A stretch of 64,000 nucleotides of DNA from an uncultured Gammaproteobacteria bacterium (GTDB lineage Bacteria > Patescibacteriota > Patescibacteriia > Magasanikbacterales > UBA922), in NCBI GenBank assembly GCA_964592785.1, contig CAZQHU010000003.1, positions 3,901 through 67,900 on the forward strand. The letters are read 5' to 3'. Position 1 is the first letter of the stretch. Every line of letters begins with the position of its first letter. Under the pieces are notes generated by a model. That model did no database searches, was not told the DNA's origin, and was given only the letters and a program-made list of their open reading frames with translations. This document shows, one piece after another, positions 1 through 57,663 of this stretch. Both the position numbers and the translations under genes were made by a program.

Positions 1-3000
1 GACGACAAAGTTTTTCAAAACCAGTAGCATAGACCGATACTCCTCGAGAATTGGTGTAAGCTTTACAACCCAAGGCCGCACCTGGGAAAGCATCACTCGG
101 ATTATCATCACAAGCTAGAGGCACATCATAACCGGCTGAAGTTTTCCAAGAATCTTTGACCCTATATAGGTGATCATCCAAACGAGTAATTTGTATATTA
201 TCAAAGAAATAACTGACTGGTTGTGTTCCTTGAGAAATAACAAAACGTAATTTGGCTACTTGGCTACCATCCCCAGTAAACTGTACTGGACCAAGTTTGT
301 ATTGTTGCCAACCAGTGCCAATACTCACACTAAAATCACCTTGAATATCACTGGAAGTAAAGCGCCCCTGAACTCCATTTTCTTCAAAATAAATATTACT
401 AATCACTGTCTCTGAACTACCTGTGCCTCTGGCCCAAAAACTTATTTCATACCAATCATTCCTTTCCAAAGTATTGGTGGCAAAAACATATTCAAAAGCT
501 CCAGCTTCTCCGGCCACTTGAGCTTGAACGTTCAAAGAATATTGCCCGACGACGATCGATTCGGGGCGAACTCTAAGATTTACATTATCAGTGAGACTAG
601 ACCAACCCTCCATGGCCTCATTGAGAGCATCGCTAGAAGTACCGGTCGGTTCAAAAGCAAAAGTTAAAATTTGTTTGATATTATTGCCAGCATTACCAAT
701 ATAGGCGCGACAGCCATTGGCAATGGCTGGACAAGAAGTGGATTCTCCGGTCCGAGAAATAGTCCAATAAACACAAGAACCATTCTCATAAGTTCCCCCG
801 CGATAACAACGGTTACATTCTCCATTTTGCATTACCCCGCCTCTGTTTGAACAAATAGCTGGATCACTAATACTATCATCCACATAAAATTCTGAGACTG
901 TTTTTCGGAGTGGATGACAACTTTGGTCCACAGTCACAGTTTCTTTGAGTAAACGATAATAAACTTGACCTTGGTCATCATAGAGCGCCCGGCAATCTTG
1001 TAGAGCCGCTCCAACCAAAGCTGGGCTTTGGAGCAACAGAGCATAAGCACTGGCATTACAATAAGTATAATTAAACTCCAAAGTTTGTTTATTATCATCC
1101 ACATAAGCTGGTCCCACTGCCAGTTCATTTTGCATTTCTGGGCTAAGACCCAAACCAGGACTTTGTAAATAATTTGCCTCTTCACTATCTACCGGCATCA
1201 AGCGATGAGTTTTCAAAACATAACCTTGATTGGCATCCCCTTCCCAAGAGTAGTAAGTTTTTTGGTTATTAGTTGTCGGTCGTTCACAATAACGAAGATC
1301 AGTATAATATTCCAATCCTTCTCCACCTTTGTTCAATTCATCAATATTGGTAAATTCATCACAACCAGCATACTGTGGTTCACAAGCTCGACCATCCAAA
1401 GGATTGAAATACATTGGGAAAACCACTGGAGAAAAGTTGGTTTTTTCTTGTTTATAAGTATCATAACCAACACATTCTTGACTGCAACTATTCTCTCCCA
1501 CTATGCCAGGTATTGTCACTCCGCCAGCAGTTGGCCGATAATTTTCACAACCCACTTCATCGGCCAAACAGACCTGAGCAAAATTTTTACATTCTGCCGG
1601 ACGATCGGCCAAAGATGCCAGCTCGACTGTGGTCCCTGGCCAATCTATTTCATCATCGGTCAAGTCTATATCATAACAACCCAAATAATCCGGGGCCCGA
1701 CGTAAATATACATCACCTGCTAGTTGTCCATCGTCAGTAATGCCACTAAATAAACTACAACCATCAGCACCCGAAGAACAAGTGTAGTTCTTGACTTTGT
1801 CATTCAAAAATAAAACTTGCGTACGACCCAACTCTTTGCGATCTTGCCAATCAGGATCGTCATCTATTTGTTCGCTATTTATCCATTGACCATTATTTTT
1901 TTCCAAAGAATAAGCCCGACAACCCACTGACTCACTATTACAAACTCCATAATCCAGAGTCCTGGCCAAATAAGAAGTCAATCGGCCATTACGATCACTA
2001 AAAGTAGTACAGGTATTATAATAAGGTTCACAACTAGTACCACCAATATCCCAAATATTTTTTTCTTTCAAACAATAACTAAAATAGCCCAGATTTTCAG
2101 GATTTTCTTCTTCTACTATGCGAGTAGAAATATCCACACAAACTTCTTGCCTTTGGGCCGATTCGCTATTTGTAAGAATTGGTCCTACTACTTTGGTCTC
2201 GCAACGAGCTTCAGGACTCTTGATAATCCAGTTGGGGTCAATAAGATGACAAAAGGGATGCGCTGTGCTAGGTTTGGCTTTGTCTGAAACACCATTAACT
2301 GTATCACCCAACCTGCCACTATTATTGGTATCTTCATAATCACAATCATCAAAACCTTGCACCACTTTACCCAAAGTCCAATCCTGTGGATTGTCTGGGC
2401 TGGCTTTCAAAGCTGCCAATTCAAAACCAATCGGCAATACTCGGGCCTTGCGTAATTTTTGTAAATTGGAATAACAATACCCTCGTAAAAAACAACCTGC
2501 AACATCTGTATTATCTGTCACTCGACGTGGCGAAATAAGTGGCCAGTCAGCATGAAGCATCCCATCTGTCAGAGCTTGCGCTATGGTTACCGGTTGATTA
2601 GTGCGAGCTCGTTGCAGAGCATCCTGTAAACCAGTATCAATAACACAATTATTTAATCCAGGATTATCAGGACAAGCGGCAAATTCATCGCTTGGAACAT
2701 AATTTTGTAGCTGTTGTGTAGAAACAGAAGCAATCAAAAATCCAAAAGTTTGTTCAGCTTGTTTGCGATTGTTAGCCACTTGCTGGGAATAAAAATCTAT
2801 CACATTATTACCAGATGAACCGCTTTTGTCACCGCTCAAAAGTCCAGAAGCCCAGCTGGTCAAACTTTTCAAAAGTTGAGAGGTCAAAGTATTGAGAAAA
2901 ACAGAGGCGGCCATTGGTAAAAGTTGTAATGAACCAGAACCATAAACGCCGGCAATCTGGCTGGTGCTTAATTCTGAACTTTGTTTAGAAGAAATTGATT

Positions 3001-3778
3001 CAGTTTCTTTTTTCACCACCTCAGCAGGAGTTTTTATTTTGCCACTAATAAGATCAGTGACAGCTTTAAATCCACCACCCTCAAGCCGAGAAGTATTGGC
3101 CCCGGCAATGGCATTAGCATTTATACGATCGATCCTACCCATAGCCCCAAGAGCAATACCAAAATCACTTTCTTCTATGCGGATGGAGTTGGCAAAAGTT
3201 TGTGATAAAAATTTACTGGCCCCAGCCCCATATCTTTCTTCAAAAGAATCCGCACTCCAAGCATTGGAAAGTTTTTGCCAATTACAAGAAGACTGTGGAC
3301 CGGTGCCGGCTTGTTTTACTGTTGGATCTGAATAAAGATTACGCAAACCTACTTGCAAAAAAGTATTCAAACGAATATCTGGAGTCTGACAAAGATTCAA
3401 ACCAAACTCTGTACCCAACTGTTCAATGGCGCTGGCCGCGCTGTCTAGAGCCACTCCTTTGAAATAAGTGCCAGCATCTTGATCAAAAACTAACGGCTTT
3501 TGACCTTTGGAACCAGAGACTACCGCCATGGCCGCGTCATAAGCCAATTTGCGCATAAAATAAGAAGCTGCTTGAAGCAAGGCTGACAAAGCAGCTGACT
3601 CTAGAGATTTCAAAATCTGGTCAGCCGAAACTTTACCAGTAAAAGCCGCTGTAATCGCCGCATCCATCTGGGCTTGAGCTGGTTTGGCAAAAGCTAAAAT
3701 TCCAAATAACTGAACAAAAATAAAGATCGCTACCATTAGTCCGAAAAATCTTTTTTTTGTCCTAGTAAAATTGAACAT
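1..3778 (-). CDS. Giant secreted cysteine-rich surface protein, over 1259 aa; C-terminus lies beyond the left edge of the window
   Basis: The minus-strand frame starts at ATG 3778 and reads MFNFTRTKKRFFGLMVAIFIFVQLFGILAFAKPAQA-QMDAAITAAF..., a signal peptide with an AQA cleavage site. The codon phase was checked at both ends (triplets starting at plus-strand positions congruent to 2 mod 3) and spot-checked for stops in several stretches. It is missing from the ORF track because there is no stop inside the window. No other long ORF occupies 1-3780. The body is Cys/Gly/Asn/Asp-rich, typical of CPR giant surface proteins. Confidence 0.6.
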   Translation of the reverse strand, partial: MFNFTRTKKRFFGLMVAIFIFVQLFGILAFAKPAQAQMDAAITAAFTGKVSADQILKSLESAALSALLQAASYFMRKLAYDAAMAVVSGSKGQKPLVFDQDAGTYFKGVALDSAASAIEQLGTEFGLNLCQTPDIRLNTFLQVGLRNLYSDPTVKQAGTGPQSSCNWQKLSNAWSADSFEERYGAGASKFLSQTFANSIRIEESDFGIALGAMGRIDRINANAIAGANTSRLEGGGFKAVTDLISGKIKTPAEVVKKETESISSKQSSELSTSQIAGVYGSGSLQLLPMAASVFLNTLTSQLLKSLTSWASGLLSGDKSGSSGNNVIDFYSQQVANNRKQAEQTFGFLIASVSTQQLQNYVPSDEFAACPDNPGLNNCVIDTGLQDALQRARTNQPVTIAQALTDGMLHADWPLISPRRVTDNTDVAGCFLRGYCYSNLQKLRKARVLPIGFELAALKASPDNPQDWTLGKVVQGFDDCDYEDTNNSGRLGDTVNGVSDKAKPSTAHPFCHLIDPNWIIKSPEARCETKVVGPILTNSESAQRQEVCVDISTRIVEEENPENLGYFSYCLKEKNIWDIGGTSCEPYYNTCTTFSDRNGRLTSYLARTLDYGVCNSESVGCRAYSLEKNNGQWINSEQIDDDPDWQDRKELGRTQVLFLNDKVKNYTCSSGADGCSLFSGITDDGQLAGDVYLRRAPDYLGCYDIDLTDDEIDWPGTTVELASLADRPAECKNFAQVCLADEVGCENYRPTAGGVTIPGIVGENSCSQECVGYDTYKQEKTNFSPVVFPMYFNPLDGRACEPQYAGCDEFTNIDELNKGGEGLEYYTDLRYCERPTTNNQKTYYSWEGDANQGYVLKTHRLMPVDSEEANYLQSPGLGLSPEMQNELAVGPAYVDDNKQTLEFNYTYCNASAYALLLQSPALVGAALQDCRALYDDQGQVYYRLLKETVTVDQSCHPLRKTVSEFYVDDSISDPAICSNRGGVMQNGECNRCYRGGTYENGSCVYWTISRTGESTSCPAIANGCRAYIGNAGNNIKQILTFAFEPTGTSSDALNEAMEGWSSLTDNVNLRVRPESIVVGQYSLNVQAQVAGEAGAFEYVFATNTLERNDWYEISFWARGTGSSETVISNIYFEENGVQGRFTSSDIQGDFSVSIGTGWQQYKLGPVQFTGDGSQVAKLRFVISQGTQPVSYFFDNIQITRLDDHLYRVKDSWKTSAGYDVPLACDDNPSDAFPGAALGCKAYTNSRGVSVYATGFEKLCR

Positions 3779-7462: not shown

Positions 7463-7858
7463 CTACATCACAAAATCACCTTGTGACAATTTTTCTGCTA
7501 ATTTAATTTCTGACCAAAGCATAGCGCCAATTTCCTCACCCAATTTTATCGCATGTTTGTATTGTTCATTTTTTATCCAGTCTGTATCTAAAGCAAAATA
7601 ATATAAATATCTTGATTCTCCAAGCGAACCATAGGACATTTCATAAAAATTTAACTTAACTTTCGGCCTTCTTCTACAATATCCTTCTACATAATTTAAA
7701 ATAACTGACAATGATGTCCTGCGCAATTGAGAAACTGATGAATACATTTCTTGTTTTGGAAAATCTTCTGTTATTTTGTAAGTATATTTTACAAATTCAT
7801 GCATTAATTTTTTTAATTTATTCTGAAATGGCGTCATCGTTTTTTCAAGCATAATCAT
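7463..7858 (-). CDS. Four-helix-bundle protein of the 23S rRNA intervening-sequence family
   Basis: Typical CPR four-helix-bundle protein. The track ORF 7463..7915 overlaps prfB, so the start was trimmed to the internal Met (MIMLEK...). Confidence 0.6.
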   Translation of the reverse strand: MIMLEKTMTPFQNKLKKLMHEFVKYTYKITEDFPKQEMYSSVSQLRRTSLSVILNYVEGYCRRRPKVKLNFYEMSYGSLGESRYLYYFALDTDWIKNEQYKHAIKLGEEIGAMLWSEIKLAEKLSQGDFVM

Positions 7859-7890
7859 TGTATAATTTAGTGATGTTGTGATGTAATGAC

Positions 7891-9000
7891 TTAGTGATTC
7901 AGTGACTTTCGCCATCTCAAATAACTTTCTACAAACCCATCCAGATCTCCATTCAAAACTCCTTCATCATCAGTCGTTTCGTGATCAGTTCGCAAATCTT
8001 TTACCAAATGATAAGGATGAAGTACATAAGAACGAATCTGGCTCCCCCATTCTGGAGATTTGTATTCACCACGTAATTTTTGTTTTTCCGCTTCTTCTTC
8101 CTCGTCTTTTATTTTTTGTAATTTGGATAATAAAATCTTCATCGCCACTTCTTTATTTTGTTGTTGTGATCTTTCATTTTGGCATTGTACAGTAATACCG
8201 GTCGGCAGATGAACAATCCTCACTGCTGAATAAGTAGTATTCACGGATTGCCCACCCTTGCCACCACTCATAAAAGTGTCTATACGTAAATCTTTGGAAT
8301 CAATCTGAATTGTTTCAGATTCATCAAGCTCTGGAATAACTTCCACTAAAGCAAAAGAAGTATGGCGCATTTTCTCGGCATCAAAAGGTGAAATCCGCAC
8401 CAAACGATGCGTGCCGTGTTCTGATTTCAAATGTCCATACGCATGATCCCCCTCAACCCGAAAAATAATTGATTTAAACCCAGCTTCCTGCCCTCTGGTT
8501 TCATCCAGAATAAAAACTTGCCAGTCCTTTTTTTCACAATAACGAAAATACATACGACTAAGCATCTCTGCCCAATCTTGGGCTTCGGTCCCACCCGAGC
8601 CAGCATGAATCGCGACAATAGCACCGTGATCATCATATTTTTCACTCATCAATGTTGTAAATTCCAACTTTTCAACTTGTTCGCTTGCCAATTCATATTG
8701 TTTCTCAATCTCTTCCCGTAAATTTACATCCTTGTCTGCCTCATCAAATCTCGCCATTTCTAATAAATCATTTATTTGTTGAGACAATTTTAACCAATTA
8801 TTTTGTTCACTTTGTAAATAACTAAGTTGCTTGCTTATCTTGGCTGCATTTTCTTGATCATTCCAAAAATCAGGAATATTCATTTTTTCTTCCAAATTTT
8901 TTATTTCTTGCTTTTTTTGTTCCAATTTTAACATCACTTGTAAATCTACAAGTTTTTTATTTAACCTTTCCAAAGATTGAACAAGTTCATGCATTTCCAT
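7891..9000 (-). CDS. prfB: Peptide chain release factor 2
   Basis: SPF and GGQ motifs (RISPFDAEK; [12 protein letters not shown]). The ORF is continuous, with no programmed +1 frameshift. Confidence 0.9.
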   Translation of the reverse strand: MEMHELVQSLERLNKKLVDLQVMLKLEQKKQEIKNLEEKMNIPDFWNDQENAAKISKQLSYLQSEQNNWLKLSQQINDLLEMARFDEADKDVNLREEIEKQYELASEQVEKLEFTTLMSEKYDDHGAIVAIHAGSGGTEAQDWAEMLSRMYFRYCEKKDWQVFILDETRGQEAGFKSIIFRVEGDHAYGHLKSEHGTHRLVRISPFDAEKMRHTSFALVEVIPELDESETIQIDSKDLRIDTFMSGGKGGQSVNTTYSAVRIVHLPTGITVQCQNERSQQQNKEVAMKILLSKLQKIKDEEEEAEKQKLRGEYKSPEWGSQIRSYVLHPYHLVKDLRTDHETTDDEGVLNGDLDGFVESYLRWRKSLNH

Positions 9001-9007
9001 AATAAAT

Positions 9008-9367: not shown

Positions 9368-9423
9368 ATATTTTTCTTAAAAATTAAATTTATCTAACTA
9401 TATTTTAGCTTATTTTAAGAATA

Positions 9424-9452
9424 TTGACAACAAAACTATTCTATGTTAGCAT
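9424..9452 (+). promoter_or_regulatory. Sigma70-type promoter (TTGACA-17-TAGCAT) of GC-rich cassette a
   Basis: TTGACA at 9424-9429 followed by a 17-nt spacer. Confidence 0.4.
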
Positions 9453-9479
9453 AAAAATGCCTAAGAGAAGGAGTCCCAC

Positions 9480-9617
9480 ATGTTCTGGAAGGAAAGGCTC
9501 CTGGATTTCAAGGACTGGCTTCGAAGGATTTTCCGTCGAAGCGCCAAGATCGAGGTGGGGTTTGACTCCACCATGTTCCCTCCCCCCGGACACTCCCAGC
9601 CCACCAAGAAATCCTGA
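9480..9617 (+). CDS. GC-rich small ORF of 45 aa (cassette a); frame chosen by its Shine-Dalgarno site
   Basis: GAAGGAG sits 6 nt upstream of ATG 9480. The region is about 58% GC in an AT-rich genome. The motif tccgttcttt follows the TGA stop. The alternative 70-aa frame from ATG 9457 has no SD and a Pro/Ser-rich product. Confidence 0.4.
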   Translation: MFWKERLLDFKDWLRRIFRRSAKIEVGFDSTMFPPPGHSQPTKKS

Positions 9618-9706
9618 CTCTCCGTTCTTTCCCGCCTCCAACCCTCCAGTTCCTTCCCCAGAGTCTTGAATTTATTCAAAATTTTGGAAAAAACTGGAGG
9701 AACATA

Positions 9707-9740
9707 TAAAAACGACCGGATATTCTCCGATCGTTTTTTG
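9707..9740. terminator. Bidirectional intrinsic terminator (A-run, hairpin, T-run)
   Basis: aaaaACGACCGGatattctCCGATCGTtttttt. Confidence 0.5.
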
Positions 9741-9743
9741 ATT

Positions 9744-9810
9744 GTCATCCTGAATTTATTTCAGGATCTTTTATTTTTAAGGGAGATGCTGAAACAAGTT
9801 CAGCATGACA
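9744..9810. repeat. Two-hairpin MITE-like element, copy 1 (GTCATCCTGAAtttaTTCAGGATC ... GATGCTGAAacaagTTCAGCATGAC)
   Basis: Near-identical to the copy at 33606-33698 and to the ends of 51796-51920. It lies immediately after the groEL stop. Confidence 0.75.
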
Positions 9811-16740: not shown

Positions 16741-17225
16741 TCCCCTCTAGAGAGGGGTGGCTCCGACGTCGCAGTCGGAGACGGGGTGTGTTACCGTTGG
16801 TTAGTGATATAATTTTCTATTGTATAAAGTACTGATTCAATATTTTTTCTTACTTCAGTTTCTGTAAATCTTAAAAATTTTAGGCCTTTATTTTCTAAAA
16901 ACTCTTGTCTCTGTTTATCGTAATCTGACTTCATATCATGACTAGCAAAACCATCTATTTCTATTGCTAACATTAATTTGGGGCAATAAAAGTCTACAAT
17001 ATAGTTGTGGATTGATTTTTGACGATGAAAGTCAAAACCCAACATTTGTTTATTTTTTAAATATTTCCAGAGTATTACTTCGCCTAGTGTGGAATGTTTG
17101 CGTAGTTCCCGGGCCTTTTGTTTTAATGATTGTTGGTAGTTAATAACTGGCATAATTTTGCAAACCACGGTCACACACCCCGCCCGCTCGAGCGGGCACC
17201 CCTCTCTAGAGGGGATTTTGTCGGT
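16741..17225. mobile_element. Putative mini mobile element: a DUF559 endonuclease gene flanked by about 55-bp structured terminal inverted repeats
   Basis: Left TIR (16742-16796): CCCCTCTAGAGAGGGGTG-[hairpin gctccgacgtcgcagtcggagac]-GGGGTGTGTTACCGTTGG. Right TIR (17163-17217, reverse complement): CCCCTCTAGAGAGGGGTG-[hairpin cccgctcgagcgggc]-GGGGTGTGTGACCGTGG. Confidence 0.6.
16791..17153 (-). CDS. DUF559 endonuclease-like protein (Vsr/restriction-endonuclease-like fold)
   Basis: GFDFHRQKSIHNYIVDFYCPKLMLAIEIDG...EFLENKGLKFLRF is typical DUF559. The ATG start MPVINYQQ was chosen; the track's GTG start lies inside the TIR. The stop codon is supplied by the inner end of the left TIR. Confidence 0.75.
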   Translation of the reverse strand: MPVINYQQSLKQKARELRKHSTLGEVILWKYLKNKQMLGFDFHRQKSIHNYIVDFYCPKLMLAIEIDGFASHDMKSDYDKQRQEFLENKGLKFLRFTETEVRKNIESVLYTIENYITNQR

Positions 17226-17390
17226 ATTTCCGACGTTTTTTTTATAGATAAATTATAGCATATTCAAGCTATTTTGTCAAGAGTGTTGATAACATTTAGA
17301 CAGAAATAGTGACAAGTTTTAAAAAATTTAATAAACTTTTCTATTCAGCTTAGGGCTGAATAAACGTTCCTTACAACGCAACCAAAAAGC

Positions 17391-17906
17391 ATGGAGGAAA
17401 CCATGGACAGAAACCAACTTCTCAAAAAGATCCAAACAAAGCTTCAAGAAGAAAGAAGCAAAAAAGAAAAAAGGGCTTTGTGGTTGAAATTGTTCAAGGC
17501 TTGTCGATGCCACCGAACTGATTTCATAGATCCAGAATATTTTCCCATCCATGATGAAGAAGGCGAATTCACCGAAAGAGACATACGCCCATATGTTGAG
17601 GAGTATGCCTTCCTCAATCCAGTCACTGGCTATGAAGCCGTTGAACAACTTCTAAAAGGAGGATATTATCTGCTTGAGATGAGGGACGGCCTACTCTACA
17701 TCGGACAGAAGCCCGAAGCAATTGAAAAGCATGAGCTGATAATCATCGGAGCGGTACGCGAAACTGATGATTACATGGCAGTCCCTATTTTCCGTACATC
17801 CAAGATCTTCAGAAGGCGCATAGCTGATTACTATTTCCTCCACTACACTTTCGACACCAACTGTCGCTTTTTGGTCTTCAAAGACAGGACCAGAACTAAT
17901 CCGTAG
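17391..17906 (+). CDS. Hypothetical protein, about 45% GC; possible cassette g
   Basis: GGAGG lies 4 nt upstream of the second ATG (17403). GC-rich palindromic mini-hairpins follow the stop. Confidence 0.5.
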   Translation: MEETMDRNQLLKKIQTKLQEERSKKEKRALWLKLFKACRCHRTDFIDPEYFPIHDEEGEFTERDIRPYVEEYAFLNPVTGYEAVEQLLKGGYYLLEMRDGLLYIGQKPEAIEKHELIIIGAVRETDDYMAVPIFRTSKIFRRRIADYYFLHYTFDTNCRFLVFKDRTRTNP

Positions 17907-18138
17907 CCCTCCACCCCGGCTGGCAGGGCCGTTCTCTCTGCCATTCCCACTCACCCCCCTTAATAAAGGGGGGCGAGGGGGGATGTTGACCAATATCCCT
18001 CCTAACCTCCCTTTACTAAGGGAGGAACCATGACCATCAAAAAACTCCCCCAACCTCTTAGTAAGAGGGGGACAATAAAACCGCCCTCACGGACGGTTTT
18101 AACTTATTAAACTTAGTTACTTAGTCAACTTAAAAAAC

Positions 18139-24090: not shown

Positions 24091-24194
24091 GAGTTGTCCA
24101 CCATACTCTCCAAAATAACCAGAACTACTTGGTAAAGATTTAAATAAATTAAATTTTTTTTTTTTAATTTTTTTAAATTTAAATTTAATAAATT

Positions 24195-24370
24195 ATTTTT
24201 TTTTTTCTGGGCCCCCCCCCGCAACTGCGGGGCGCTCCACTAACCAGGACTCGACCCTAACAGCCGAGCAATGTCTTACCCTCCCGCCTCATCTGCTCTA
24301 GAACTTTGAGAAACATCGCGTAGCTGTAAGGACGTGGATCCATGGTCATGCCTCCCCATAAAGAACGAAC
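24195..24370. ncRNA. GC-rich (about 60%) structured element of unknown class between yerC and trpB-trpS
   Basis: Flanked by an extreme AT-rich, low-complexity stretch. It matched neither tmRNA, RNase P, SRP, T-box nor tRNA signatures when checked by eye. Confidence 0.3.
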
Positions 24371-24398
24371 AAAAAAACGTCCGGCTTAGGGCCGGACG
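24371..24398 (-). terminator. Intrinsic terminator of yerC
   Basis: Minus strand reads CGTCCGGCcctaaGCCGGACG followed by TTTTTTT. Confidence 0.6.
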
Positions 24399-24495
24399 AT
24401 GTTCACCAAAACACCATCAAACTAGACCCTTCGCCAGAGAAGATATTGCCACCAAGCAAATTGTCTAGTTTGACTATTTTTCATATAAATTCTCG

Positions 24496-24789
24496 TCATT
24501 CCCGCGTCGGCGGAAATCTTTTATTTTTTAAAATCTTATAAAAACCACCTTTTTTATCTAACATCTCTCGCGCTCCTCGCTCTACTTTGGAAATACTCAC
24601 CGCGAGCTTCTTGGCGACTTCACGTTGAGTCAAACCTTGATGTAGGAGTTTCACAATCTGCAAGCGCATGACCACATCTTTTATTTCCGCCGGAGTAAGT
24701 AAATCCGCCAAAAAATCTTCCATCAATTTTTCATCTTTAATACCTACTAAAACTTTTAATAATTCTTTTTTGGCTTGAACAAAACCCAT
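24496..24789 (-). CDS. yerC: TrpR-like YerC/YecD family DNA-binding protein
   Basis: 97-aa protein with the conserved C-terminal HTH (LTQREVAKKLAVSISKVERG). Confidence 0.75.
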   Translation of the reverse strand: MGFVQAKKELLKVLVGIKDEKLMEDFLADLLTPAEIKDVVMRLQIVKLLHQGLTQREVAKKLAVSISKVERGAREMLDKKGGFYKILKNKRFPPTRE

Positions 24790-24867
24790 ACATTATTACT
24801 TTATAAACTTTTTAACTTTACAAACTTTAAACTACCCCGTACTGCTGTACCAGTACAAAAGTATTAT

Positions 24868-24902
24868 ATAAAATAAAAAACCAGCCGTCAATCGACGGCT
24901 GG
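24868..24902 (-). terminator. Intrinsic terminator (or attenuator) at the 3' end of the GC-rich leader
   Basis: Minus strand reads CCAGCCGTCgattGACGGCTGG followed by TTTTTTATTTTAT. Confidence 0.6.
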
Positions 24903-24904
24903 GG

Positions 24905-25150
24905 ATAAAATTGAGCCTATACGAATTTTTTTGGGGAGGTGGACTGCTGCGCCAGTCCACCCCAAGTCTTGCGCTGCGTTCCCCTACTCGCAGAGGGGCG
25001 GTGGAGACGAAGATTGTCTGGGTGTTTATCCCTAAATACCTTCACTTTTCTTCGTCTACCCCGACGGGCCGGTAGGTTGGGACGTCGTCGCCCTACAACA
25101 CCACCACGCAGCGGCTGGAACGGCTGGCCATAGAGCACCTCCTGTTGGCC
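24905..25150 (-). ncRNA. GC-rich (about 60%) structured leader RNA upstream of yerC; riboswitch- or attenuator-like, class unknown
   Basis: Own promoter, AGGAGG SD plus a 12-codon ORF (MASRSSRCVVVL), mutually exclusive helices sharing one GGGG run, an anti-SD CACCTCC, and a terminator about 80 nt before yerC. Confidence 0.45.
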
Positions 25151-25601: not shown

Positions 25602-25677
25602 CCTATCTTCGACTGGGTACACCAATCGCACTTTTCCAACTTCGTTGGAGCACCTGAACCTGGAGGATTCAGGGTGA

Positions 25678-25745
25678 CTCAAGTGTTTATAAGTATTTTG
25701 TAAATAGTTGAGAATAAAAAATCCCGATTATATCGGGATTTTACT
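25678..25745 (+). repeat. Conserved cassette 3' module, copy A (caagtgtttataagtattttgtaaatagttgagaataaaaaat plus terminator hairpin)
   Basis: Near-identical to 35240-35306 and 35848-35925. The hairpin sequences differ but the structure is conserved (cccgattatatcggg). Confidence 0.8.
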
Positions 25746-27546: not shown

Positions 27547-27590
27547 AAAATATTTTATTTTTATTTAAATTAAAAAGAAGAAAAAATTTG

Positions 27591-27674
27591 TACCGCGAGA
27601 GAGACTTGAACTCTCATGGCCTTGCGGCCGCTGACACCTGAAGCCAGTGCGTCTACCAATTTCGCCATCGCGGC
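27591..27674 (-). tRNA. tRNA-Leu (anticodon CAG), type II with a long variable arm
   Basis: Minus strand: GCCGCGA-TG-GCGAAATTGGTAGACGC-A-CTGGC-TTCAGGT-GTCAG-CGGCCGCAAGGCCAT-GAGAG-TTCAAGT-CTCTC-TCGCGGT-A. The acceptor, D, anticodon and T stems all pair. The anticodon loop TTCAGGT gives CAG. Confidence 0.85.
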
Positions 27675-33099: not shown

Positions 33100-34006
33100 T
33101 CAGCGTGAAATTGAGTTAATTAAAGCATTTGTGTTGAAAAAACCACGCGAATTTTTTATTGCCCACCCGGAGTACCAAGTTAGCAAGTTAGCAAGTGAAC
33201 AAGTGAATAAGTTGATTAAAAAACGTACTCGTGGTATTCCACTCGCTTATTTACTTGGCAAAAAAGAATTTTTTGGGTTGAATTTTACAGTAAATAAAAA
33301 TGTTTTGATTCCTCGCCCAGAGACAGAACTGATGGTAGAAAAAGTTTTACAAAAAATCAAGAATTCAAAAAACCAAGAAATTATTTTAATTGATATTGGA
33401 ACTGGTACTGGATGTATTCCCATTTCAATCATAAAAACAATTAACCCCACCCTACCCTCCCCTACAAGGGGAGGGAAAGGGAGAGGTTTCGCCGTCTTTG
33501 CCACGGACATCTCCCAACCAGCTTTGTCTGTCGCCAAAAAAAACGCCAAAAAACATAATGTAAAAATAAAATTCCTTCACGGCAACTTGCTTGAACCATT
33601 TCTCTGTCATCCTGAATTTATTTCAGGATCTTTCCCAAAATCAAACCTGCTAAAAAGTATATCTGGAGAAAAGATGCTGAAACAAGTTCAGCATGACATC
33701 ATCATCACCGCCAACCTCCCCTATCTTACACCTCAACAACTTAAACAAGAACCCTCAATAAAACACGAACCTCACCTCGCCCTCGTCGCTGGCAAAGATG
33801 GACTAAAATACTACCGAGAACTTCTTAAACAAATTAATATATTGACTTCGGACTACAGACTACAGACTACAGTTTTTTGCGAAATAAATCCGGAACAAAC
33901 AAAAAATATAAAACTCCTTACTAAAAAAATTCTTCCCCAAGCCAAAATAACCCTCCACCAAGATCTGGCTGGAAAAAATAGAGTGGTGGAGATAATTCCC
34001 CTCTAG
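33086..34006 (+). CDS. prmC: Release factor glutamine N5-methyltransferase PrmC/HemK; contains two in-frame palindromic-element insertions
   Basis: SAM motif IDIGTGTG and NLPY (a variant of NPPY). Classic prfA...prmC linkage. Confidence 0.85.
   Translation: MSKIDQREIELIKAFVLKKPREFFIAHPEYQVSKLASEQVNKLIKKRTRGIPLAYLLGKKEFFGLNFTVNKNVLIPRPETELMVEKVLQKIKNSKNQEIILIDIGTGTGCIPISIIKTINPTLPSPTRGGKGRGFAVFATDISQPALSVAKKNAKKHNVKIKFLHGNLLEPFLCHPEFISGSFPKSNLLKSISGEKMLKQVQHDIIITANLPYLTPQQLKQEPSIKHEPHLALVAGKDGLKYYRELLKQINILTSDYRLQTTVFCEINPEQTKNIKLLTKKILPQAKITLHQDLAGKNRVVEIIPL
33606..33698. repeat. Two-hairpin MITE-like element, copy 2; 93 nt, inserted in frame in prmC
   Basis: It encodes LCHPEFISGSFPKSNLLKSISGEKMLKQVQHD between the SAM-binding region and the NLPY motif. 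Confidence 0.75.
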
Positions 34007-34150
34007 AGAGGGGTGCCCGCTCAAGCGGGTGGGGTGTGTTACAATAGCAAAAATTAAAAACAACGGTCACACACCCCGTCTGCCTCCCGCCTGCCATGCC
34101 TGGCACTGGCGGGCAGGGCGAAGGCATACACCCCTCTCCAGAGGGGATCG
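34001..34150. mobile_element. Cargo-less TIR pair (MITE) of the DUF559-element family
   Basis: CCCCTCTAGAGAGGGGTG-hairpin-GGGGTGTGTTAC, an 18-nt spacer, then CGGTCACACACCCC-long hairpin-CACCCCTCTCCAGAGGGG. Confidence 0.6.
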
Positions 34151-34164
34151 CCTCTTGACAAACC

Positions 34165-34193
34165 CATAAAAATAAGCTATAATGCCCTGTTCT
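34165..34193 (+). promoter_or_regulatory. Consensus promoter TTGACA-17-TATAAT of cassette d
   Basis: TTGACAaacccataaaaataagcTATAAT. Confidence 0.65.
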
Positions 34194-34393
34194 TTGAAAA
34201 TTTTCAAACGGCTTATAAATTAGCCAATTTTTGACTAATGTCTAGGCCGTTTGAGGCTTAGGGAACAGAAAAACTACTGTTGAAGGAGTGGCCTGTATAG
34301 GGGGCAACTACCGAGACCTTTTTGAAGGTCATTACAGCAAGTTTCTGTTTTCCCGACTTCCTGTTCCGCCCGAGGCGGACAAGAGGAGGTACC

Positions 34394-35161: not shown

Positions 35162-35180
35162 ACACTGTTCGTTCTTTAGA

Positions 35181-35232
35181 GGGGCGCCGACCGGTTGAGT
35201 TGAGATTTACTTCTCCTCCCGGTCGGCGCCCC
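35181..35232 (+). repeat. Conserved 3' hairpin of cassette d (14-bp stem GGGGCGCCGACCGG / CCGGTCGGCGCCCC)
   Basis: Cassette e carries GTCCGACCGG/CCGGTCGGAC, a compensatory variant, and shares the loop start ttgagtt. Confidence 0.7.
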
Positions 35233-35239
35233 GATGTAA

Positions 35240-35306
35240 TCAAGTGTTTGTAAAATATTTTGTAAATAGTTGAAAATAAAAAATCCGCTGATAAGGCGGT
35301 TTTTTT
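35240..35306 (+). repeat. Conserved cassette 3' module, copy B, plus terminator
   Basis: tcaagtgtttgtaaaatattttgtaaatagttgaaaataaaaaat-CCGCTGataaGGCGG-ttttttt. Confidence 0.8.
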
Positions 35307-35341: not shown

Positions 35342-35370
35342 TTGACAAAAACACAAAAATAAGCCAATAT
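35342..35370 (+). promoter_or_regulatory. Promoter TTGACA-17-CAATAT of cassette e
   Basis: Shares the spacer motif aaaataagc with the promoter at 34165. Confidence 0.55.
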
Positions 35371-35408
35371 TGTTATAGGAAATTCGTCATCTACAGGAGG
35401 TTTTCTCA

Positions 35409-35747: not shown

Positions 35748-35792
35748 CCATCCGCCCGAGTCAGGGCAAACCAAATTGTTTCGTTCTTTAGC

Positions 35793-35841
35793 GGGTCCGA
35801 CCGGTTGAGTTAATGCCTCCTTGGCATTCTCCCGGTCGGAC
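35793..35841 (+). repeat. Conserved 3' hairpin of cassette e
   Basis: GTCCGACCGG-ttgagtt...-CCGGTCGGAC. Confidence 0.65.
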
Positions 35842-35847
35842 AATCCA

Positions 35848-35925
35848 ATCAAATGTTTGTAAAAATTATTTTGTAAATAGTTGAGAATAAAAAATCACTT
35901 AATAATCTAAGTGATTTTTTATTTT
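35848..35925 (+). repeat. Conserved cassette 3' module, copy C, plus terminator
   Basis: atcaaatgtttgtaaaaattattttgtaaatagttgagaataaaaaat-CACTTaataatctAAGTG-tttttt. Confidence 0.8.
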
Positions 35926-36172
35926 TTAGAACGACAATTGGCTGGGGTTTGGGGCCGCCAACCTGTTTGAGCTAGAAGTGCTTGATGGATATGTATATTA
36001 TTAGTATGGCGAGTCTTGGCGGCCCCAAAACTTTTTTGTTACTTTTTTGGTTACAAAAAAGTAAAGAGTGATTATTTTGTCATAAACTTCGGCAAACTCT
36101 CCTGGCCTACGGGCCACCCTCTCTTGGAAAGAGAGGGATGACAAACATCCACCTATATTTTTATTTTTTGTT

Positions 36173-37664: not shown

Positions 37665-37700
37665 AACTTTGACATCATACTACAAAAAAATCAAAAAATC

Positions 37701-37733
37701 AAAAACCGCCCCGCAATATGCGGGGCTGTTTTT
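37701..37733. terminator. Bidirectional terminator
   Basis: aaaaaccGCCCCGCaatatGCGGGGCtgttttt. Confidence 0.6.
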
Positions 37734-37806
37734 GACTGTCCCCGACTGTTCGGTGCGACAGTCGGGATCTCCTTGCTTGTTTGCCCTGAGACGGGCAGAG
37801 AGAACC

Positions 37807-38319: not shown

Positions 38320-38382
38320 CTTGCTAACAAGCTGTCAGAGACAAGCTTAACAAAAGCATTCTTGACTGTCAATAATTACACA

Positions 38383-43906: not shown

Positions 43907-43980
43907 CAGCTTGTCCGACGCAACGAAGTAAAGCCGGATGAAAAATCTGGATATATAAAAATAAAAAATAGATATATATA

Positions 43981-44011
43981 AAAACATCCCGGCTAAGCCG
44001 GGATGTTTTTC
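43981..44011. terminator. Bidirectional terminator shared by gyrB and cassette h
   Basis: aaaaaCATCCCGGCtaaGCCGGGATGttttt. Confidence 0.65.
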
Positions 44012-44151
44012 CCTCAATCTCTTCTAAAATTTAAAAAAGATATTTGGGATGTGAAGTCTGGCGCCACAGACTTCACTCCCTCCTTGTCACACGGATAAAC
44101 GATCACACCCTTTGGCGCGCCAGCCTCCGCAAGCTGGAAAGGAACGGCTGA

Positions 44152-51795: not shown

Positions 51796-51920
51796 GTCAT
51801 CCCGAACTTGCCTGCCCGCCAATGCCAGGCAAGGCAGGTGAGTTTTAGGATCTCTCATAAAATAATTTTACTAAGCAAAACAATCTAACGGAAAGATGCT
51901 GAAATAAATTCAGCATGACA
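51796..51920. repeat. Two-hairpin MITE-like element, copy 3, with a nested GC-rich hairpin insertion; fills the dut-thyA spacer
   Basis: Ends GTCATCCcgaa... and ...GATGCTGAAataaaTTCAGCATGACA. The nested segment cttgcctgcccgccaatgccaggcaaggcagg resembles the inner hairpin of the 34001-34150 TIR. Confidence 0.65.
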
Positions 51921-57624: not shown

Positions 57625-57663
57625 GCGAAAAGCCGACCCTTCGGGGTCGGCTTCGCCTTTTTT
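57625..57663. terminator. Terminator hairpin
   Basis: GCGAAaaGCCGACCCttcgGGGTCGGCTTCGCcttttt. Confidence 0.6.

Follow-up and report, generated by a model that had tools for sequence, protein, structure and literature searches.

Probable moron-like cassettes with conserved non-coding frames and GC-rich payloads among housekeeping genes of Candidatus Magasanikbacteria

We analysed a 64-kb stretch of contig CAZQHU010000003.1 (hereafter 'the window', meaning all 64,000 nucleotides (nt)), in which small units rich in guanine and cytosine (GC) are scattered among housekeeping genes. The overall GC content of the window is 38.9%. At least eight of the units carry an open reading frame (ORF), and we call them cassettes a, g, c3, d, e, f, h and i. 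Positions 24182-25140 hold b and c, two additional short GC-rich units. With a probability of roughly 0.6, we consider these units to be moron-like accessory cassettes of a class known so far only from Candidatus Magasanikbacteria. They would be made of two layers, an AT-rich and conserved non-coding frame that serves expression and provides recombination joints, and a GC-rich, fast-evolving payload gene. Homologues of the DUF3048 protein of the window carry the name Candidatus Magasanikbacteria, and one of its non-coding elements was found again in the Magasanikbacteria genome GW2011_GWC2_37_14. Our literature search returned general work on horizontal transfer in Patescibacteria and no description of these cassettes.

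The usual unit consists of a promoter and/or a strong Shine-Dalgarno sequence, a GC-rich ORF, a structured 3' untranslated region (UTR) and an intrinsic terminator (Table 1). The units measure 0.3-1.4 kb and are spread across 48 kb, with only d and e in tandem. Their neighbours include groEL, nusA, the gene for RNase J, prmC, the L25 gene, gyrB, secE and gatB; the window also encodes prfA, prfB, ftsW, the secE-nusG-L11-L1 cluster, the thymidylate pathway, miaA, miaB and thrS. A reading of the same DNA from its letters alone (the sequence-only reading) had announced about eight such units in 64 kb, amid housekeeping genes and often in convergent spacers, and the eight ORF-bearing units plus b and c agree with that estimate. 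Its description of each unit as a single ORF with a TTGACA-type promoter or a strong Shine-Dalgarno sequence and a terminator holds for the layout, less so for the promoters of f, g, h and i, which are weak or unclear.

The promoter of d is a perfect match to consensus (12/12) and those of a, e and c3 are good (9-12/12 for the four). In f and h, a correctly oriented TTGACA is paired with a weak -10 hexamer, g has a 9/12 candidate only, and for i no promoter-like site scored above threshold. A Shine-Dalgarno sequence and an ATG are present at every ORF-bearing unit, the ATG of i being preceded by AGGTG. All eight cassettes end with a hairpin and U-run terminator, often bidirectional and thus serving both strands in convergent spacers. 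We folded the 3'UTRs of seven of the eight units, leaving out i with its single terminator hairpin; their z-scores range from -4.3 to -8.1 relative to shuffled sequences, and none of 200 shuffles folded as well.

The cassettes stand out by their base composition, most sharply at third codon positions. Taken as whole intervals, the five GC islands named in the sequence-only reading have GC contents of 46.1% (a), 46.4% (g), 47.3% (f), 54.7% (h) and 49.5% (i), which places them at the 92nd to 99.9th percentiles among windows of the same length, and their ORF cores have 43-56% GC. All five places are thus correct, with measured values of 46-55% instead of the 50-58% given for them. The GC content at third codon positions (GC3) is 0.48-0.78 in cassette ORFs versus 0.16-0.42 in 59 of the 60 other long ORFs. 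The sole exception is a 166-codon ORF at 1205-1705 (GC3 0.53) that overlaps a giant minus-strand gene. Cassette ORFs follow the order GC3 > GC1 > GC2, as exemplified by d with 0.51, 0.39 and 0.78 at the first, second and third codon positions.

The frames are more conserved than the payloads. Copies of the leader of d were found at 34189-34393 in the window, at 1664-1878 in contig L036 and at 3675-3889 in contig L038, the latter two carrying the d-family genes P0006 and P0007, respectively. Between the window and L036 or L038, the flanking proteins are 55-60% identical and the cassette proteins 27-30%, versus 77-79% nucleotide identity for the 205-nt leader; between L036 and L038, the corresponding values are 73%, 50% and 88%. 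The leader is predicted to adopt a multi-helix fold whose last helix sequesters the Shine-Dalgarno sequence, with five covarying pairs among only three sequences. It had no match in Rfam. A 5'-terminal stem-loop of the transcript is found in the d type, in the L025 type and in the type of M1, a cassette of GW2011_GWC2_37_14.

On the 3' side, the modules of c3, d and e have a 45-nt box in common. That of c3 is composed of a hairpin, the box TCAAGTGTTTATAA..TTTTGTAAATAGTTGARAATAAAAAAT, which is an AU-rich hairpin itself, and the terminator. The same type of module follows unrelated ORFs in GW2011_GWC2_37_14 and in two metagenome contigs (three Magasanikbacteria contigs), with three compensatory pairs in its first hairpin. 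When searched in genome and metagenome collections, the box pattern of 14-23 nt hit mostly unrelated AT-rich DNA, and only the Magasanikbacteria matches are real. In some genomes only, a palindrome of ~29 nt, CCCTCCCACCTATACATAGGTGAGAGGGT, lies exactly in the loop of the box hairpin (L001 9925-9955, with equivalents in L014 and L025). We also considered pairing between the 5' and 3'UTRs, or terminal inverted repeats, and rejected them as a general feature, as GGAACGAA/TTCGTTCC occurs in a single cassette (K1 of L034).

A second component of the frames is a short motif past the stop codon. The sequence-only reading had noted 'cgttcttt' after the stops of a, d, e and h; the motif is real, is better written CGTTCYYT, and extends to g and, as GTTCTCT, to f. 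The exact CGTTCTTT is weak by itself because the window contains six copies versus 2.8 expected. The CGTTCYYT form has 10 copies in the window, eight of them inside GC-rich units, and lies within 45 nt of the stop in five cassettes (a, g, d, e and h). Counting GTTCTCT right at the stop of f, six of the eight cassettes have the motif past their stops versus none of 60 other ORFs (Fisher p = 2.6e-7, for a motif widened after the data had been seen). It is absent from c3 and i. The motif is predicted to be single-stranded and sits immediately 5' of the first hairpin of the 3'UTR; in island a, where it can also be written CCGTTCTTTCC, it separates the 45-codon ORF from the long hairpin. Cassette e and cassettes of four other genomes contain a longer element, made of a small hairpin (YGCCC..RGGGC), an A-rich linker and CGTTCTTT. 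In slot d, a second copy of the motif is found on the 5' side, directly past the -10 box, and both related species as well as the other strain have it too. Further 5' copies are present in the g leader and at the start of b.

We compared the window with a set of strains available as Logan contigs from a few sequencing runs, which are 99-100% identical to it across housekeeping DNA. Cassettes a, h and i are ~99% conserved in all strain contigs. In L001, f is replaced between L25 and DUF3048 by f', an unrelated GC-rich ORF of 137 codons. One joint lies directly past the -35 hexamer and the other at the first hairpin of the 3'UTR, both precise to a few bases, and identity in the flanks is 100%, extending beyond 2 kb on one side and beyond 600 nt on the other. 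In the same strain, the place of d between prmC and DUF2238 is taken by d', an unrelated 300-codon membrane protein, together with a 32-codon peptide; L001 has retained the promoter including GTTCTTT as well as the 3' hairpin module. This replacement sits in a tract of ~85% identity that includes DUF2238; since DUF2238 is only ~85% identical in L001, the divergent tract was imported. Cassette e, bounded by two direct copies of the AU-rich box, is missing from L001.

Another strain contig, L006, has an extra cassette. At 768-1438 it harbours 670 nt of GC-rich DNA in what is, in the window, a 7-nt spacer between the stop of the DUF4870 gene and the start of prfA (9001-9007). This cassette comes with a TTGACA promoter of its own, encodes two or three small hydrophobic membrane peptides and includes a bidirectional terminator. 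At this insertion, the one empty/occupied pair, we found neither direct repeats nor a target-site duplication, a trace for which the sequence-only reading had proposed to look. The L006 cassette also appears to supply a new promoter-like site for prfA. Lastly, L003 has an ordinary AT-rich gene in place of unit c, and its DNA differs beyond 24910. Between strains, cassettes thus come, go and replace one another, and the breakpoints fall within the frame. The presence/absence differences that the sequence-only reading had suggested looking for were therefore found, as replacements or absences in L001 (f, d, e), L003 (c) and the related genome L032 (no f, h, d or e) and as the extra cassette in L006.

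Comparisons with more distant relatives showed the same slots occupied differently. L032 (33% GC, DUF3048 protein 65% identical) has the gene order of the window without f, h, d and e; the 20 kb available contain no GC island outside gyrB, and its L25-DUF3048 and secE-gyrB spacers are 111 and 288 nt long. Two different GC-rich cassettes were seen in GCA_003510435.1 (59% identical), of which one occupies the slot past prmC. Over six genomes, this slot is either empty or filled with one of four unrelated payloads. Some cassettes persist in one slot across species and retain their GC-richness: d, P0006 and P0007 are each directly downstream of prmC, and synteny in two genomes also holds for M1 and its 67%-identical homologue. 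Fragments of a DDE-type transposase, which from their sequence are likely to be IS30-like, were observed directly upstream of the M1 cassette in GW2011_GWC2_37_14 (L024 10850-11839).

The cassette proteins are mutually unrelated and matched no known family. We searched 17 of them, from the window and its relatives, against Pfam, 10 against PADLOC and eight against PHROGs, and no family scored above noise. Searches at the billion-protein scale covered h, f and d: among 5.8 billion proteins, h and f had their own strain variants only, d had three relatives among 1.84 billion cluster representatives, and none of the three had a relative outside this lineage. IMG/VR contained no relatives of h, of M1, of the d-family profile or of the box motif; tblastn searches with h in plasmids and with d in phages found nothing, nor did a sequence search of the PDB with h. 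Membrane proteins or small hydrophobic peptides are encoded by the d family, d', K1, both ORFs of L025 and the L006 cassette, and further payloads appear to be soluble. The alternatives of one slot, d and d' or f and f', have no similarity by BLASTP, and the d-family profile has no significant match to d' or to ORF1 of L025. Even so, d, d' and ORF1 of L025 share an architecture, with N-terminal membrane helices and a helical tail.

In the explanation that we favour, the frame would comprise, in some cassettes, a consensus promoter with a 5'-terminal stem-loop or a long leader and, in most, a 3'UTR with the single-stranded CGTTCYYT, one to three hairpins and an often bidirectional terminator. 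With such a frame, a cassette would be expressed autonomously, have its mRNA protected and be insulated from adjacent operons. In other bacteria, 5' stem-loops guard mRNA against 5'-end-dependent decay, and those of the cassettes may do likewise. The payload would be a protein of no known family, in many cases a small or polytopic membrane protein, with a putative strain-specific function at the cell envelope or in interactions with a host or with phages. After DNA uptake, payload replacement would draw on homology in the frame sequences and in the core genes that flank the cassettes. No recombinase, transposase or phage gene was detected by a Pfam scan among the ~60 ORFs of the 64-kb window; as the window encodes no recombinase, exchange would proceed as in the minimal mobile elements of Neisseria.

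Several points weigh against this explanation. All comparisons draw on a few genomes and on metagenome assemblies. Frames differ from unit to unit: c3 and i have no motif, i has no clear promoter and the AU-rich box is restricted to the c3/d/e subfamily. No payload was found in two different slots, which leaves movement of a given cargo between sites hypothetical. The payloads have no assigned function, and the AlphaFold model of h is unusable, with a predicted local distance difference test (pLDDT) score of 34. The persistent, coding-only GC-richness is left unaccounted for. Homologous recombination within the frame is itself deduced from the sequences, and a recombinase acting in trans could be encoded outside the 64 kb. 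The flanks of f are perfectly identical, so that no co-imported donor DNA marks a homologous exchange there, and the f swap fits a site-specific mechanism as well as it fits local homologous exchange in a recombining population. That such a mechanism used CGTTCYYT at f is, in our estimation, doubtful. The ~85% tract of slot d, for its part, fits homologous exchange.

A more far-reaching proposal, which we consider rather unlikely, concerns the system as a whole. The frames would be fixed docking sites and expression adaptors of a gene-capture and display system dispersed over the chromosome, a dedicated mechanism would exchange orphan payloads precisely at the edges of the frames, and the GC-richness confined to their coding part would be actively maintained, e.g. 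by GC-biased conversion at recombination hot spots or through constant resupply from a GC-rich gene pool that has not been sampled. If true, this would be a functional analogue of the integron with neither array nor adjacent integrase.

A related possibility is a dispersed, integron-like capture in which a recombinase encoded elsewhere acts in trans, swapping payloads at the short core site (C)GTTCTTT beside the 3' hairpins and leaving the frames in the chromosome as docking sites. The motif flanks the variable segment of slot d on both sides in both strains and both related species, g too has a 5' and a 3' copy, and the d/d' joints coincide with the motif; the f swap is precise to a few bases between identical flanks, d and e stand in tandem with the same module after each, and the L006 insertion lacks a target duplication. 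However, 7-8 bases are very short for a recombination site, f' has no motif at its 3' joint, c3 and i have none altogether, and the window contains no integrase or transposase. The d-family cassettes of three species, which occupy the same slot and were apparently inherited vertically, have the motif equally conserved, and its predicted single-stranded position allows a role at the RNA level instead. The cassettes also own their promoters and are not arrayed. We therefore regard this reading as a rather questionable one.

The sequence-only reading had taken the units for a dispersed family of horizontally acquired or mobile single-gene modules, with a high-GC host of an episymbiont as one candidate source. 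The dispersed, autonomous and strain-variable nature of the modules stands, and the high-GC import is poorly supported. In favour of recent import from such a donor, with composition not yet drifted to that of the recipient, payloads of 43-64% GC and GC3 up to 0.89 occur in genomes whose GC content is 33-39%, their differing GC values could be read as a range of ages, and the cassettes differ between strains. This origin is nevertheless unlikely. As described above, h, f and d have no outside homologue in the 5.8 billion proteins or 1.84 billion representatives searched, and M1 and its homologue are syntenic. Promoters, leaders and 3'UTRs look native, being AT-rich and conserved within Magasanikbacteria, and in the d family the composition steps up at the ATG. 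The three d-family genes have 55-56% GC and GC3 values of 0.66-0.78, versus 0.22-0.34 for neighbouring genes. The number of synonymous substitutions per site (dS) between P0006 and P0007, which share their slot, is 1.19, and that of the adjacent prmC 1.07, so that the d-family gene and prmC appear to have diverged together; even so, the GC3 of P0006 and P0007 is still 0.66-0.72. Because the dS of the d family equals that of prmC and its GC3 has remained at 0.66-0.78, the GC-richness is persistent and not the fading trace of a recent import. Conservation of position and host-like codon usage had been named in the sequence-only reading as the signs that would speak against mobile islands; the position of d is conserved and its codon usage is not host-like. 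The GC content may be kept up by biased gene conversion at hot spots of recombination, by selection acting on mRNA or DNA, or by repeated re-import from an unsampled GC-rich pool.

The synteny of the d family and M1, which diverge along with their neighbours, and the ~99% conservation of a, h and i in all strain contigs would also be expected if the cassettes were ordinary lineage-specific resident genes kept GC-rich by selection or local bias, the strain differences being due to deletion and homologous exchange. We deem this improbable, since non-homologous payloads occupy one frame in strains otherwise 99.7-100% identical, in L006 a new cassette has entered an operon by splitting a 7-nt spacer, the same 3' module follows unrelated ORFs at different loci, and f, h, d and e are missing from L032.

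As judged from their sequences, the payload ORFs are translated genes under relaxed purifying selection. The ratio of non-synonymous to synonymous substitution rates (dN/dS) is ~0.40 for M1 versus its 67%-identical homologue in L014 and ~0.35 for P0006 versus P0007, with 0.19 for the adjacent prmC. In ORF a, three strain contigs (L004, L005 and L007) have nine substitutions within 23 nt, six of them synonymous, including AGG to CGA. A hairpin in this region is maintained by four compensatory pairs (-13.8 kcal/mol in the window, -18.7 in L004), and the Arg-rich peptide LRRIFRRSA becomes LRRFFRRGT across strains. Thus, frame-specific GC periodicity, Shine-Dalgarno sites, dN/dS and the compensatory and synonymous changes in a argue that the ORFs are coding. 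That the islands are instead structured non-coding RNAs with ORFs as by-products of GC-rich sequence is very improbable: the 3'UTRs and the d leader are strongly structured, unit c holds a 12-codon ORF only and gene callers skipped cassette i in three strain contigs, but GC3 is frame-specific, dN/dS is below 1, a Shine-Dalgarno sequence precedes each ATG, a has synonymous double substitutions, an ORF of 284 codons in DNA of 56% GC is not expected by chance, and Rfam gave no family match in any island at the gathering threshold or at E-values up to 0.5.

The units resemble several known systems in part. Phage morons, located in phage or prophage genomes, reportedly are single extra genes inserted into an otherwise conserved gene order, with their own promoter, a factor-independent terminator and a composition that departs from that of their neighbours. 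The units are likewise single genes with promoter and terminator, of atypical composition and within a conserved gene order. Unlike morons, they lie amid chromosomal housekeeping genes with no phage gene nearby and no PHROG or viral match, and what defines them is their conserved non-coding frames, a feature that morons are not known to have in common.

By the definition that PMC3082526 quotes (Saunders and Snyder 2002; Snyder et al. 2007), the minimal mobile elements of Neisseria are described as exchanged by homologous recombination after DNA uptake. Here too, distinct whole-gene cassettes occur between the same conserved genes (f or f' between L25 and DUF3048, d plus e or d' between prmC and DUF2238), with no mobility gene, terminal repeat or target duplication. 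In contrast with those elements, the joints of f are in the cassette's own promoter and 3'UTR and not in flanking genes, and the units share regulatory frames and a common compositional signature.

Integron cassettes form a promoterless tandem array next to an intI tyrosine recombinase gene, with attI and a common promoter, and their attC sites are imperfect palindromes bracketed by RYYYAAC and GTTRRRY. The units have in common with them an unrelated, mostly single-ORF cargo, a short GTT motif at boundaries beside an imperfect palindrome, and the tandem d and e with the same structured end. However, the 64-kb window contains no integrase, the units are dispersed, and most have their own promoter-like site and all a terminator. 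(C)GTTCTTT has pyrimidines where GTTRRRY requires purines and lies only 5' of the hairpin, without an inverse core; moreover, the hairpin of a unit remains in the chromosome when the cargo changes. The likeness to integron cassettes is superficial only.

Like classical genomic islands and islets, the units are compositionally atypical, strain-variable accessory DNA; unlike them, they are only 0.3-1.4 kb long, occupy many sites and have neither integrase nor flanking direct repeats, and the sole tRNA gene of the window (27590-27674) adjoins none of them. Palindrome-associated elements of the IS200/IS605 type have subterminal hairpins at both ends and are moved in trans by a Y1 transposase. In the units, hairpins cluster on the 3' side only, with some 5'-terminal stem-loops, and no TnpA or RAYT gene was found in the 64-kb window.

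Genomes of the candidate phyla radiation are small and usually described as streamlined. About one-tenth of the housekeeping region analysed here consists of autonomous orphan genes in standardized frames, which differ between near-identical strains. If general, these cassettes would make the accessory gene pool of such uncultured bacteria more accessible and supply native promoter, leader and terminator parts for genetic tools. They would also be a test case for a GC-rich gene class in an AT-rich genome, with a bearing on amelioration and biased gene conversion in bacteria. Both the d leader, as a candidate cis-regulatory RNA, and the CGTTCYYT element are candidates for new regulatory RNA elements.

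Table 1. Positions of the GC-rich units and their parts in the window.
Feature	Positions	Strand	Remarks
Promoter of a	9424-9452	+	TTGACA, 17 nt, TAGCAT, TG extension; 10/12 match
ORF of a, 45 codons	9480-9617	+	AAGGAG at 9468-9473; GC per codon position 0.46/0.46/0.74; kept in four strain contigs
Hairpin within ORF a	9518-9542	+	Compensatory changes in strains L004, L005 and L007
Motif of a, CGTTCTTT	9623-9630	+	6 nt past the stop; predicted single-stranded
3'UTR of a	9643-9739	+	Long hairpin 9643-9700, A-run, terminator hairpin 9708-9738 and U-run; z = -5.4
5' motif copy in g leader, CGTTCCTT	17365-17372	+	
ORF of g, 171 codons	17391-17906	+	GC3 0.48; ATG at 17403 after GGAGG is the likelier start
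3'UTR of g	17907-18105	+	Small hairpin, CGTTCTCT at 17930-17937, three GC-rich palindromes (dispersed repeat family), terminator-like hairpin; z = -4.3
Unit b, GC-rich stretch	24182-24457	-	Begins with CGTTCTTT (24367-24360) and GGAGG; ORF of 28-30 codons; no canonical terminator
Unit c, transcription-unit-like GC-rich stretch	24855-25140	-	12-codon ORF only (contains CCGTTCC); promoter-like site; strong terminator 24881-24902
ORF of c3, 88 codons	25335-25601	+	After GGAGG; GC3 0.60
3' module of c3 type	25602-25745	+	Hairpins, conserved AU-rich box TCAAGTGTTTATAAG..TTTTGTAAATAGTTGAGAATAAAAAAT, terminator; z = -5.6
Promoter of d	34155-34183	+	TTGACA, 17 nt, TATAAT; 12/12 match
Leader of d	34189-34393	+	Structured 5'UTR of ~205 nt, begins with GTTCTTT; in the final helix CUUCCU pairs with Shine-Dalgarno AGGAGG
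ORF of d, 255 codons	34394-35161	+	Membrane protein with helical C-terminal part; GC3 0.78
3' module of d	35162-35305	+	CGTTCTTT at 35170-35177, GC-rich hairpin, AU-rich box hairpin, terminator; z = -6.9
Promoter of e	35342-35371	+	TTGACA, 18 nt, AATATT; 10/12 match
ORF of e, 112 codons	35409-35747	+	Entire cassette missing from strain L001
3' module of e	35748-35920	+	Small hairpin CGCCC..AGGGC, A-rich linker, CGTTCTTT at 35782-35789, GC-rich hairpin, box hairpin, terminator; z = -8.1
3' module of f	37690-37806	-	GTTCTCT right after the stop, three hairpins, bidirectional terminator 37708-37726; z = -7.1
ORF of f, 170 codons	37807-38319	-	Likely start 38307, giving the 166-residue product on record
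Promoter region of f	38344-38372	-	-35 TTGACA at 38372-38367; weak -10 TAAGCT
3'UTR of h	43980-44151	-	CGTTCCTT at 44146-44139, several hairpins, bidirectional terminator 43985-44006 in common with gyrB; z = -4.7
ORF of h, 284 codons	44152-45006	-	Likely start 45000 (282 residues); 56% GC, GC3 0.68
ORF of i, 87 codons	57349-57612	+	GC3 0.65; convergent spacer past gatB; no motif, no clear promoter
Terminator of i	57630-57662	+	10-bp GC-rich hairpin, A-run before and T-run after

The 3' module of f is identical in strain L001 from 37798 outward, and the segment 17955-18025 of the g 3'UTR matches L001 at 86%. Unit c could be a small RNA or a decayed cassette. Unit b sits between the gene for a TrpR-like repressor and an operon for a PALP enzyme and Trp-tRNA synthetase, and ends with a C/G run followed by a long T/A run. 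It may be the regulatory leader of these downstream genes rather than a cassette.

An apparent island at 1-1700 was rejected as a cassette, as it lies within the giant minus-strand gene. This very large gene, part of which covers 1-3700, has a locally raised GC content that mimics an island, and on the related contig L004 its product is called at 2915 residues. We also noticed genes for small proteins resembling bAvd and 23S-rRNA-intervening-sequence proteins amid housekeeping genes (7463-7915 on the minus strand of the window; L032 3039-3407). Their positions differ between related genomes, and no reverse transcriptase was seen in the window.

Two kinds of dispersed palindromes accompany the units. 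Short repeats of the first kind (GTCATCCTGAATTTATTTCAGGATC, GATGCTGAAACAAGTTCAGCATGACA) are found at 9744-9768, 9773-9810, 33661-33698 and 51883-51920. Four independent Logan contigs end at 9771, beside such palindromes, and three others have a copy of this repeat at their start. The d' leader of L001 contains an inserted palindrome related to these repeats. The second kind are GC-rich palindromes similar to repetitive extragenic palindromes (e.g. CCCCTCTCTAGAGGGG, GCCCGCTCGAGCGGGC and CCCTCCTAACCTCCCTTTACTAAGGGAGG), at 17170-17215, 17955-18025, 33995-34150 and 36100-36150. They cluster beside terminators and cassettes, adding to the apparent GC islands. Copies of them occur in L001, L024, L036 and L038, and two gave sub-threshold matches to the anti-hemB family of Rfam.

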